From Escherichia coli (GTDB lineage: Bacteria > Pseudomonadota > Gammaproteobacteria > Enterobacterales > Enterobacteriaceae), in NCBI RefSeq assembly GCF_051903065.1, contig NZ_CP178438.1: a stretch of DNA of 64,000 nt; one strand, written 5' to 3'. Positions 20,601-23,600 of this stretch are shown here, piece after piece. A program made the position numbers and the translations under genes. Under the pieces are notes generated by a model. That model saw only the letters and a list, made by a program, of their open reading frames with translations, made no database searches and was not told the origin of the DNA. How positions within the stretch are numbered: position 1 is the first letter of the stretch; each line of letters starts with the position of its first letter.

Positions 20601-23600
20601 CTCGATTAGCAACAGCGGAAAAGGCATGACGGATAGCAACGGGACTGCAATCGCCTCCCTGACCGGCACGTTAGCGGGCACGCATATTATCACGGCTCGT
20701 CTGGCTAACAGCAATGTCAGCGATACACAGCCAATGACGTTTGTGGCGGATAAAGACAGAGCGGTTGTCGTTCTGCAAACATCGAAAGCGGAAATCATTG
20801 GGAATGGCGTGGATGAGACGACTCTGACAGCAACAGTTAAAGATCCTTTTGATAACGTGGTTAAAAATCTTTCAGTAGTCTTCCGCACCTCCCCCGCAGA
20901 CACGCAACTGAGTCTGAACGCGCGTAATACTAATGAGAACGGTATTGCTGAAGTTACCCTTAAGGGCACGGTTTTGGGTGTTCATACAGCCGAAGCCATA
21001 CTGCTTAACGGCAACAGAGATACGAAGATAGTCAATATTGCGCCCGATGCCAGCAACGCGCAGGTCACCCTGAACATCCCTGCACAACAGGTGGTGACGA
21101 ATAACAGCGACAGCGTGCAGCTGACGGCGACGGTGAAAGATCCGTCAAATCATCCGGTGGCGGGAATAACGGTGAACTTCACCATGCCACAGGACGTGGC
21201 GGCAAACTTTACCCTTGAAAATAACGGTATTGCCATCACTCAGGCCAATGGCGAAGCGCATGTCACCCTCAAAGGTAAAAAAGCGGGCACACATACGGTA
21301 ACCGCAACGCTGGGTAACAATAATGCCAGCGATGCGCAGCCAGTCACATTCGTGGCGGATAAGGACAGCGCGGTTGTCGTTCTGCAAACATCGAAAGCGG
21401 AAATCATTGGGAATGGCGTGGATGAGACGACTCTGACAGCAACAGTTAAAGATCCTTTTGATAACGCAGTAAAAGATCTACCGGTCACCTTCCGTACCAA
21501 CCCGGCAGATACTCAACTTAGTCAGAGCACAAGCAATACTAACGACAGTGGTGTTGCTGAAGTTACCCTTAAGGGCACGGTTTTGGGTGTTCATACAGCC
21601 GAAGCCACACTGCCTAACGGCAACAACGATACGAAGACAGTCAATATTGCGCCCGATGCCAGCAACGCGCAGGTCACGCTGAATATCCCTGCTCAACAGG
21701 TGGTGACGAATAACAGTGACAGCGTGCAGCTTACGGCGATGGTGAAAGATCCGTCGAATCATCCGGTGGCGGGGATAACGGTAAACTTCACCATGCCACA
21801 GGACGTTGCAGCAAACTTTACCCTTGAAAATAACGGTATTGCCATCACTCAGGCCAATGGGGAAGCGCATGTCACGCTGAAAGGTAAAAAAGCGGGCACG
21901 CATACGGTTACCGCAACGCTGGGTAATAACAATACCAGTGATTCGCAGCCGGTAACATTTGTGGCGGACAAAACCTCGGCTCAGGTTGTCCTGCAGATGT
22001 CAAAAGATGAGATCACAGGTAATGGCGTCGATAACGCAACGCTAACTGCAACGGTTAAAGATCAGTTCGACAATGAGGTGAATAATCTTCCGGTAACATT
22101 CAGCTCAGCCTCTTCAGGACTCGCCCTGACCCCGGGAGTAAGTAATACCAATGAGTCTGGCATCGCGCAGGCCACTCTCGCAGGCGTTGCCTTTGGTGAG
22201 CAGACGGTCACTGCATCACTGGCTAATAATGGTGCCAGCGACAACAAAACTGTGCATTTTATTGGCGACACAGCGGCGGCAAAAATTATCGAGTTGACGC
22301 CTGTCCCAGACAGCATAATCGCCGGTACCCCGCAGAACAGCTCCGGCAGCGTCATCACCGCCACAGTCGTTGATAATAATGGCTTTCCGGTGAAAGGTGT
22401 GACTGTGAACTTCACCAGCAACGCAGCGACAGCCGAAATGACGAACGGCGGTCAAGCCGTGACGAACGAACAGGGTAAGGCTACCGTCACTTATACCAAT
22501 ACCCGCTCCTCGATAGAATCAGGAGCGAGACCGGATACCGTTGAGGCCAGTCTGGAAAATGGTAGCTCCACGCTTAGCACATCAATTAATGTCAACGCTG
22601 ATGCGTCTACGGCACATCTCACCTTGTTACAGGCACTTCTTGATACAGTCTCCGCAGGCGACACTACCAATCTGTATATTGAGGTGAAGGATAATTACGG
22701 CAACGGTGTACCCCAGCAGGAGGTAACCCTCAGCGTTTCACCAAGTGAAGGCGTGACTCCCAGTAATAACGCTATATATACGACCAATCACGACGGCAAT
22801 TTTTACGCAAGCTTTACCGTTACAAAAGCCGGAGTTTATCAAGTGACGGCAACCCTCGAAAATGGCGATTCGATACAACAAACGGTGACCTATGTGCCGA
22901 ACGTCGCGAATGCCGAAATCACGCTGGCAGCCTCGAAGGATCCGGTGATTGCCGACAATAACGATCTCACGACACTAACAGCAACAGTCGCTGATACAGA
23001 GGGCAATGCGATAGCCAACACTGAAGTAACATTTACTCTGCCGGAAGATGTGAAGGCGAACTTCACGCTGAGCGATGGCGGTAAAGCGATTACTGATGCT
23101 GAAGGCAAAGCGAAAGTCACGCTGAAAGGTACAAAAGCAGGCGCTCATACTGTTACAGCATTGATGGCTGGCGGTAAGAGTGAGCAGTTGGTGGTGAACT
23201 TTACTGCGGATACGCTCACTGCGCAGGTTAATCTTAACGTTACCGAGGACAATTTTATCGCTAATAACGTCGGGATGACCAGGCTGCAGGCAACAGTGAC
23301 TGATGGAAACGGCAACCCGTTAGCCAATGAGGCGGTGACATTCACGCTACCGGCAGATGTGAGCGCAAGCTTTACTCTCGGACAAGGCGGTTCCGCCATT
23401 ACTGACATCAACGGCAAGGCTGAAGTTACACTGAGCGGTACAAAATCCGGCACCTACCCCGTGACAGTTAGCGTGAACAATTATGGTGTCAGTGATACGA
23501 AACAGGTGACTTTGATTGCCGATGCTGGTACCGCAAAACTAGCCTCCTTAACCTCTGTATACTCATTCGTCGTCAGCACGACCGAGGGCGCGACCATGAC

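Follow-up and report, generated by a model that had tools for sequence, protein, structure and literature searches.

The 609-bp tandem repeat of the long Escherichia coli yeeJ allele: probable age, exchange between its copies and length variants

Results and Discussion

The repeat lies in the long allele of yeeJ

The window, that is, the whole 64-kb stretch of DNA analysed here, contains the adhesin gene yeeJ in the locus order mtfA, tRNA-Asn, yeeJ, glycosyltransferase family 9 gene, shiA. The yeeJ sequence of the window is 100% identical to a CDS annotated in NZ_AP045789.1 (protein WP_141094498.1), and the gene order annotated around that CDS agrees with the one around yeeJ in K-12 strain EC600. 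The match confirms that the repeat described below lies inside yeeJ, as an earlier note on this DNA had stated. The features of the locus are as follows.

17252-17327, tRNA-Asn
17638-25620, plus strand, yeeJ CDS, long allele (7983 bp, 2660 aa), inverse autotransporter adhesin
20673-20748, plus strand, C-terminal end of Big domain D5, similar to the ends of B1 and B2; the homology of the repeat starts here
20749-21048, plus strand, Big_1 domain A1, first domain of copy 1 (aa 1038-1137)
21049-21357, plus strand, Big_1 domain B1, second domain of copy 1 (aa 1138-1240)
21358-21657, plus strand, Big_1 domain A2, first domain of copy 2 (aa 1241-1340)
21658-21966, plus strand, Big_1 domain B2, second domain of copy 2 (aa 1341-1443)
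21967-22302, plus strand, Big domain D10, an older A-type paralogue and third, weak copy at spacing 609

The mechanically called ORF opens with a TTG at 17563, 25 codons upstream of the annotated yeeJ start, and encodes 2685 aa. Pfam analysis of this ORF detected IAT_beta (PF11924, E=3.8e-113) at aa 169-444, Big_1 in 16 stretches (E=9e-261) and Invasin_D3 likewise in 16 stretches. The product therefore has the layout of a type Ve inverse autotransporter, with an N-terminal IAT beta-barrel followed by a C-terminal Big_1/invasin D3 passenger. At E<=0.001 the scan listed no LysM or lectin family, and Invasin_D4 fell below the cut-off (23.5 versus 27 bits); in the available text of PMC5595812, the LysM of YeeJ is assigned by Prosite PS51782 and the C-type lectin domain is the last 103 aa.

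The gene is 7983 bp long here versus 7077 bp in K-12, and the excess of 906 bp corresponds to 302 aa, or three extra Big domains. Two yeeJ length variants, differing by a 906-bp fragment of repeated nature that encodes three additional Big domains, are described in the available text of Martinez-Gil et al. 2017 (Sci Rep 7:11326, PMC5595812), where the fragment was found by PCR across reference collections. The gene, the locus and the 906-bp, three-Big-domain excess over MG1655 are the same in the published UMN026-type long variant, and we see no essential difference from it; the assignment to this type combines our comparison with the K-12 gene and the definition of the long allele in the part of PMC5595812 available to us. 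We concluded that the 609-bp repeat belongs, as its internal tandem repeat, to the long (UMN026-type) yeeJ allele known from the literature, and is an ordinary feature. The same available text makes no mention of a 609-bp two-domain unit, of a chimeric K-12 domain or gene conversion between copies, or of the alleles dealt with below that have a single unit (7374/7398 bp) or lack 850 bp.

Geometry and domain structure of the repeat

The earlier note had pointed to a 97-nt string recurring exactly 609 bp apart, with a divergent patch of about 90 bp in the middle of the repeat, and both observations held. The string (GCGGTTGTCG...TTTTGATAACG) has just two occurrences in the window, one at 20761 and the other at 21370, and the patch spans 87 nt, of which 28 differ between its two forms (68% identity).

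20761-20857, plus strand, 97-nt tract, first copy, exact match to 21370-21466
21370-21466, plus strand, 97-nt tract, second copy, exact match to 20761-20857
20858-20944, plus strand, divergent patch of type 1 in A1 (87 nt, domain codons 37-66), partner of 21467-21553
21467-21553, plus strand, divergent patch of type 2 in A2, partner of 20858-20944

Self-comparison of 19500-24700 at every offset from 30 to 3000 gave a unique peak at 609, the sole strong self-match, at which the best 300-nt window was 94.7% identical; the runner-up was 1218 at 64%, and the median over offsets was 31%. At offset 609 the identity stays at or above 0.8 between about 20700 and about 21360 (0.8 over 20700-20759, at the end of D5), and the 97-nt run is followed by further exact runs of 54, 39, 23, 23, 50 and 20 nt. 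When the two copies were taken in domain phase (20749-21357 and 21358-21966), 59 of the 609 sites differed, an identity of 90.3%. A repeat search of the window returned three copies, starting at 20673, 21282 and 21891 (spacing 609 and 609); compared with the first, the second is 83% and the third 64% identical.

The 609-bp unit is exactly two Big_1 domains, A (100 aa) and B (103 aa), present as A1-B1-A2-B2, with borders given by the envelopes of an HMM built on these four domains; the suggestion of a two-domain unit was thus right. Amino acid identity is 83% between A1 and A2 and 97% between B1 and B2. The remaining pairs of Big domains have a median identity of 33% and a maximum of 56%, so the rest of the array is indeed much more diverged; D10 shares 53-56% with A1 and A2, and D5 shares 40-41% with B1 and B2. 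Protein homologues of D5-D10, among the matches listed, were all 1087 aa or shorter and mostly contig-end fragments, unfit for counting Big domains.

Tandem Repeats Finder, whose longest period covered is 500, reported no array in yeeJ. A contingency locus with a phase-variable simple-sequence repeat was considered and rejected: the unit length of 609 bp is divisible by 3, and the gene contains no short-period array.

Two antisense ORFs of at least 100 aa lie across the repeat.

20439-20969, minus strand, non-genic antisense ORF of 176 aa within yeeJ, echoed in the repeat by the 86-aa ORF 21240-21500 (minus strand)
21478-21903, minus strand, non-genic antisense ORF of 141 aa within yeeJ, an echo of 20872-21087 and 21145-21387 (both minus strand)

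The peptide ...LSKGSLTVAVRVVSSTPFPMISAFDVCRTTTALSLSATNV... is common to the minus-strand ORFs 20439-20969 and 21240-21500, and the minus-strand ORFs 20872-21087 and 21145-21387 recur within 21478-21903, in keeping with the view that these ORFs echo the repeat. The two longer ORFs are not echoes of each other, because their frames differ. RefSeq annotates no CDS on the antisense strand here.

Exchange between the two copies

Divergence between the copies is very uneven. Across neighbouring segments of about 100 nt the inter-copy dS runs from 0 to more than 1.4. B1 and B2 of the window differ with dN 0.013 and dS 0.35 (inter-copy dS of the B domain ranges from 0.15 to 0.40), and the patch types 1 and 2 differ with dN 0.24 and a saturated dS of at least 1.4 (dN/dS about 0.17).

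The comparison of 14 haplotypes revealed 30 polymorphisms common to both copies, a count inflated by site-rate heterogeneity and a single converted allele, versus 8 fixed inter-copy differences, all at the 3' edge of B (copy-1 equivalent sites 21318-21351). The longest exact inter-copy tracts measured 58-176 nt, and their position varied among the haplotypes. At 26 copy-diagnostic patch sites the difference between the copies is conserved in 13 of the 14 haplotypes. The exception is NY1601, in which the type-2 patch of copy 2 is replaced by type-1 sequence: copy 2 is of type 2 at 20754, of type 1 with two off-type sites over the 26 patch sites, and again of type 2 at the eight 3' sites. The signs of concerted evolution were thus found, namely shared polymorphisms, uneven divergence and, in NY1601, a conversion tract bounded on both sides. 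Because the identity tracts are strain-specific, shared polymorphisms outnumber fixed differences 30 to 8 and one patch has been overwritten, the haplotypes point to ongoing gene conversion between the copies, which would be homologous (RecA-type). The 87-bp patch of the A domain usually stays diverged.

The identity mosaic might instead come from uneven selective constraint, or from a foreign segment imported into one A domain. The patch occupies one unbroken stretch of the domain, codons 37-66, where dN/dS is about 0.17, and no donor for either patch type was found elsewhere in the window, the A-like D10 included, which makes an external origin possible. However, constraint at the protein level cannot account for a more than 30-fold range of dS between neighbouring segments, the identity tracts shift among strains, and NY1601 carries a clean replacement of a type-2 by a type-1 patch within copy 2. 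We therefore regard constraint or import as unlikely and prefer exchange between copies.

The exchange between copies also bears on the 97-nt tract. Over 20749-20857 there are 2 inter-copy differences in the window versus 3-7 in the other 13 haplotypes, and inter-copy dS in the 5' part of A is 0.04 versus 0.12-0.27 in other strains. In the other 13 haplotypes the longest exact inter-copy tract sits elsewhere than at 20761-20857. From these comparisons the 97-nt tract alone looks recent, as the most recently homogenised, lineage-specific segment.

Length variants

The segment by which the window gene exceeds the K-12 gene is the following.

20847-21752, plus strand, 906 bp missing in the K-12 (MG1655-type) allele, from mid-A1 to mid-B2

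By BLAST, positions 1-3209 of the K-12 gene match 1-3209 of the window gene, and 3199-7077 match 4105-7983. The junction repeats, which carry the 'VKDP' motif, are GTTAAAGATCC (20836-20846) and GTGAAAGATCC (21742-21752). The deletion in K-12 keeps both the reading frame and the domain register, fusing residues 1-32 of A1 to residues 33-103 of B2, and the K-12 sequence 3' of the junction has 1 difference from B2 versus 17 from B1. It would stem from recombination or slippage at the 8-11-nt microhomology in the conserved VKDP motif.

The reverse direction, in which a 906-bp block was inserted into an ancestral short form of K-12 type to give the long one, is compatible with the direction-neutral wording 'presence of a 906 bp fragment' in the available text of PMC5595812 and with K-12-type alleles being somewhat commoner (roughly 1,600 genomes, an estimate, since pieces of the junction probe get joined in long alleles). 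However, the junction domain, in which A1 1-32 and B2 33-103 meet at a shared motif of 8-11 nt, is a chimera of the kind left by a deletion from a two-unit allele; neither the A patch sequences nor B1 have a donor within the short allele; and an inserted block would have had to enter mid-domain with the register exactly kept. An ancestral short form is thus very unlikely, and we retain the reading of the K-12 allele as a deletion from the two-unit repeat.

Alleles with a single A-B unit (7374 and 7398 bp) were found in at least 40 genomes and in several haplotypes, and all six that were examined begin as type 1 (5') and finish as type 2 (3'). They would have arisen through unequal crossing-over, and could instead represent the state before duplication. 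The claim that the repeat lengthens the passenger relative to other alleles is in agreement with both the single-unit alleles and the K-12 allele. In O145:H28, yeeJ has an 850-bp out-of-frame deletion and is annotated as frameshifted. The length classes of yeeJ are 7983/8007, 7374/7398 and 7077 bp, plus pseudogenes. In a non-exhaustive search for a three-unit allele, the two genomes with three probe matches that were checked both had ordinary two-unit genes, of 7983 and 7989 bp. A search of genome contigs for related loci gave one Acidobacteriales locus and no Escherichia outgroup; the order single unit, two units, K-12 deletion, argued from divergence only, is the one that we suggest.

Age of the duplication

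A probe for the B1-to-A2 junction, scored as present at a coverage of at least 80%, matched about 1,222 of 5,426 complete E. coli genomes (about a fifth), and O157:H7 is among the carriers of the two-unit A1-B1-A2-B2 architecture. Outside the repeat, dS between yeeJ alleles is 0.027-0.116. Since about 1,222 of the 5,426 genomes carry the duplication and inter-copy dS exceeds allelic dS, the duplication is not recent; as judged from the sequences, it is shown to be old, with copies that have diverged more at synonymous sites than the alleles have among themselves.

The earlier note had proposed a recent duplication or gene conversion. Gene conversion is upheld by the tracts, the shared sites and NY1601; recency is contradicted by the genome count and by dS. 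A recent tandem duplication of two Big domains specific to this strain, with little time for divergence, would fit the 97-nt exact repeat and the overall identity of 90% beside only about 33% for other domains. However, the same architecture recurs in the 1,222 genomes, O157:H7 included, the 26 patch sites and 8 3'-edge sites are copy-diagnostic and common to unrelated strains, and inter-copy dS (0.35 for B, 1.4 or more for the patch) exceeds the allelic 0.03-0.12. The population data refute such an origin, to which we attach hardly any probability.

That the repeat is an assembly artefact, with a single real copy written twice or a larger array collapsed, has next to no likelihood: repeats of about 600 bp can mislead short-read assemblers and many partial YeeJ fragments from contig ends are in the protein database, but the copies have 59 differences, including a 68%-identical patch, not expected of an artefactual duplication, more than 1,200 independent complete assemblies share the two-copy structure and the gene length, PCR detected the 906-bp fragment in reference collections according to the available text of PMC5595812, and the two candidate three-unit genomes had ordinary two-unit genes. 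With 59 differing sites between the copies and a longest exact run of 97 nt, the assembly-collapse hazard should be modest.

We consider it very probable that the locus holds an old A1-B1-A2-B2 repeat of long yeeJ, whose copies are still exchanging sequence and which is the source of the length variants.

Comparison with other adhesins and significance

The closest solved relative by sequence is intimin (6tpl, E=1.4e-7 over two domains), and intimin and invasin share with YeeJ the architecture of a beta-domain and a Big_1 array. The passengers of intimin and invasin are rigid rods, their length growing with the number of domains. These proteins have 4-5 extracellular domains and Tir and beta-1 integrins as receptors, whereas YeeJ has many more Big_1 domains and, to our knowledge, no known receptor. 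By analogy with the architecture of invasin and intimin, the repeat would set the number of Ig-like modules in a rod-like passenger, and hence the outward reach of its C-terminal lectin-like tip; 16 Big_1 matches were found here versus 13 Big domains reported for K-12, the two counts being obtained by different methods.

In Gram-positive bacteria, alpha C/Rib, Bap and SasG have Ig-like or related tandem modules whose number varies by homologous recombination, altering projection. These proteins have many near-identical units and change copy number frequently, whereas yeeJ has only two units, 90% identical, with a copy number stable enough for widespread allele classes. The invasin-like protein of Yersinia ruckeri is a type Ve adhesin with an array of Big domains, some nearly identical in DNA, and such near-identical repeats may lead to gene misassembly (PMC6714894). 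In contrast, yeeJ has one duplicated two-domain unit with copies 90% and not about 100% identical, and the rest of its Big array is about 33% identical, unlike the near-identical Ig domains of Y. ruckeri.

The phenotype reported for YeeJ is biofilm formation, in which the assays described in the available text of PMC5595812 revealed no difference between the long and short variants. A further reading, which we hold to be unlikely, is that the A-B cassette is a recombination module that varies stalk length and surface. Unequal exchange would then generate the one-unit, two-unit and chimeric classes and gene conversion would shuffle variants between copies, and the patch would remain diverged because the two A types differ in role, for example in binding or antigenicity. 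If this were true, the length classes would be adaptive and not neutral, fitted perhaps to how thick the O-antigen layer or capsule is.

The old, exchanging repeat matters little past annotation hygiene, the long and short variants being published and biofilm assays having revealed no functional difference between them. Because the copies exchange sequence, simple alignment of yeeJ alleles is unsafe over 20700-21970, and since the gene has several lengths, typing schemes and pangenome clustering will split or merge yeeJ unpredictably. Short-read assemblies warrant a check at the repeat. The allele series is a natural example of how adhesin Ig-domain arrays grow and shrink in two-domain steps.

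The 609-bp repeat and its host gene

The window contains the 97-nt string beginning GCGGTTGTCG at two places only, the 20761 and 21370 of the earlier note. When all offsets from 30 to 3000 were scanned over 19500-24700, the off-diagonal expected from that note was present at 609 bp and was the only strong one; its top 300-nt window was 94.7% identical, compared with 64% for the runner-up offset (1218) and a median of 31%. This match is far beyond chance. At an offset of 609, identity was at least 0.8 over about 20700 to 21360, and further exact runs of 54, 39, 23, 23, 50 and 20 nt lay beyond the 97-nt run. 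The divergent middle patch, previously put at about 90 bp, is 87 nt long (20858-20944) and only 68% identical between copies. A repeat search returned three copies, spaced by 609 and 609 bp, with 83% and 64% identity to copy one. The window's other exact 20-mer repeats, at offsets of 16200, 2409 and 18609, are due to three plus-strand tRNA-Asn(GTT) genes; four genes for this tRNA are present (17252-17327, 31628-31703, 33452-33527 and 35861-35936), and a tRNA-Ser(CGA) gene lies at 16171-16260 (-).

The repeat region falls within a single long ORF that is 100% identical to an annotated 7983-bp CDS of E. coli strain 23CRST027 and has the neighbours of the K-12 yeeJ locus (mtfA, tRNA-Asn, a family-9 glycosyltransferase gene and shiA), which bears out the placement of the repeat inside yeeJ. 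The annotated start is at 17638, and the mechanical ORF opens at a TTG 25 codons upstream (17563-17637); for MG1655, a start another 18 codons downstream has been argued, giving 2340 rather than 2358 aa (PMC5595812). Pfam analysis revealed an inverse-autotransporter beta domain (E=3.8e-113) and 16 Big_1 stretches, and among solved relatives intimin (6tpl, E=1.4e-7) is the closest in sequence. A homologous protein search with the repeat region returned fragments only. The downstream glycosyltransferase gene (25882-26997, minus strand) is intact, and the matching record annotates a 1053-bp CDS for it; its counterpart in K-12 strain EC600 is interrupted by an internal stop and is a pseudogene.

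By the limits of an HMM built from the repeated domains, which form a continuous array, the 609-bp unit comprises exactly two Big domains, here called A and B and numbered by copy:

20749-21048, domain A1, 100 aa
21049-21357, domain B1, 103 aa
21358-21657, domain A2, 100 aa
21658-21966, domain B2, 103 aa

A1 and A2 share 83% and B1 and B2 97% amino-acid identity. All other Big-domain pairs are much more diverged, as had been noted (median 33%, maximum 56%). The top match to A outside the unit is the next domain, D10 (53-56%), and D5, the domain preceding A1, is B-like (40-41%). Together with the 609/609 spacing, these likenesses suggest that the array had an older two-domain periodicity, of which the A-B pair is the youngest layer. 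In this strain the C-terminal thirds of the A domains (20945-21048 and 21554-21657) differ at five nucleotides in four codons, all non-synonymous (I/T, L/P, R/N, I/T) with dS 0; the sites are too few to call selection.

On the minus strand, ORFs 609 bp apart contain recurring peptide stretches, in agreement with their earlier description as echoes of the repeat; the two antisense ORFs that reach 100 aa or more occupy different frames and do not echo each other. RefSeq annotates none of these antisense ORFs, and nothing suggests that they are genes.

Correspondence with the published long allele

K-12 yeeJ (7077 bp) matches positions 1-3209 and then 4105-7983 of the window gene, and lacks 906 bp (20847-21752). 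In the accessible text of Martinez-Gil et al. 2017 (PMC5595812), two length variants, yeeJ-MG1655 and yeeJ-UMN026, are described, a 906-bp fragment of the longer one giving three additional Big domains. In substance, therefore, the repeat has been described before: it is the long yeeJ variant. The accessible parts of that paper and of one other make no mention of the two-domain 609-bp unit, a chimeric K-12 domain, conversion between copies, or a third length class with one unit. The repeat is genuine but unremarkable, and these unit-level details are refinements rather than a new kind of thing.

Age of the duplication and gene conversion

A 240-nt probe for the B1-to-A2 junction was covered to at least 80% in 1,222 of 5,426 complete E. 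coli genomes, among them O157:H7 and a diverse set of isolates from humans, animals and the environment. In the window, dN and dS are 0.013 and 0.35 between B1 and B2, and 0.24 and 1.4 (saturated) in the patch. Outside the repeat, dS between other yeeJ alleles and the window is 0.027-0.116. The inter-copy dS values exceed this allelic range, so the A-B copies predate the sampled allelic diversity of yeeJ; together with the wide distribution of the junction, this contradicts the earlier suggestion of a recent duplication. An outgroup scan found nothing. The B domain is under strong purifying selection.

From one ~100-nt segment to the next, dS varies more than 30-fold along the unit (0.04, 1.4, 0.00 and 0.35 in the window), a change that protein constraint cannot yield. 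We compared 16 two-unit alleles, representing 14 distinct haplotypes. Only 8 sites were fixed between copies, and at 30 sites the same alleles were polymorphic in both copies, a count that the NY1601 tract and rate heterogeneity inflate in part. Which exact match between the copies is longest depended on the strain: the window has 97 nt at 20761, Z142-4 has 160 nt at 20945, FDAARGOS_1288 has 176 nt at 21076 and NY1601 has 140 nt at 20857. Copy 2 of NY1601 has the copy-1-type patch throughout, with diagnostic sites on either side still of copy-2 type, and so holds a bounded conversion tract. These patterns argue for conversion tracts between the copies, the option that the earlier note had offered beside duplication. 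The 97-nt identity of the window is itself a tract specific to its lineage: over 20900-21700, no more than about 13 genomes match the window at 99% identity or above, and the segment holding the tract has dS 0.12-0.27 in other strains.

Assembly collapse should be a modest hazard with 150-nt paired reads, because the copies in the window differ at 59 positions and their longest exact run is 97 nt; it would be greater for NY1601-like alleles, with only 21 differences.

Length variants arising from the repeat

The K-12 junction lies within the conserved TAxVKDP motif (GTTAAAGATCC in A1, 20836-20846; GTGAAAGATCC in B2, 21742-21752). The junction domain is an in-register chimera of A1 residues 1-32 and B2 residues 33-103, and past the junction K-12 differs from B2 at 1 position and from B1 at 17. 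The K-12 type thus records the loss of 906 bp from an allele with two units, and not an insertion. Because long alleles carry either T or G at site 20838, the microhomology may have spanned 11 nt.

We also found yeeJ genes with a single unit:

L009 (NZ_CP073929.1, strain MB64), 2466-9863, single-unit yeeJ; likewise loci L022 and L026

Their lengths, 7398 bp in MB64 and 7374 bp in AR_0077 and GN06156, equal the 8007- and 7983-bp long forms minus 609. A single-unit D5-A-B-D10 query aligned unbroken over its whole length in at least 40 complete genomes (95-100% identity), and the class comprises several haplotypes. All six single-unit alleles examined are of copy-1 type through the patch and of copy-2 type at the 3' edge, a combination that would result from unequal crossing-over in the homogenised core; a form ancestral to the duplication would look the same at both places. 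In O145:H28 strain RM13516 (NZ_CP006262.1, 1501-8651), an 850-bp out-of-frame deletion without microhomology runs from B1 (window ~21213) into D10 (~22063), and the gene is annotated as a frameshifted pseudogene. No three-unit allele was found in the two genomes with extra junction-probe matches that were checked. Taken together, the sequences establish the repeat architecture, how old the duplication is relative to allelic diversity, the conversion tracts and the deletion junctions.

Other variation was observed at the locus. The 8007-bp alleles (2668 aa; L007, L010, L012 and L016), a second family of long forms, align with the window at ~93% identity to gene position 7598 and differ at the 3' end beyond it (window ~25235-25620), so the lectin-like tip at the C terminus varies between alleles as well. 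About 2,000 genomes, ST131 and IAI39 included, retain only about 2.4 kb at the locus (compared with window 17638-25620), annotated as separate 'inverse autotransporter beta domain' and 'Ig-like domain' proteins; this form is a heavily reduced gene or a different one. Several other genomes carry IS1, IS3, IS4 or IS66 insertions in yeeJ.

Conversion and unit loss would both proceed by RecA-dependent homologous exchange between the direct repeats, and the K-12 deletion by short-homology recombination or slippage. In biofilm assays, the sole functional comparison published according to the accessible text of PMC5595812, long and short variants showed no difference. By analogy with invasin and intimin, in which passenger length grows with the number of Big domains, each added Big domain would lengthen the rod-like passenger of YeeJ.
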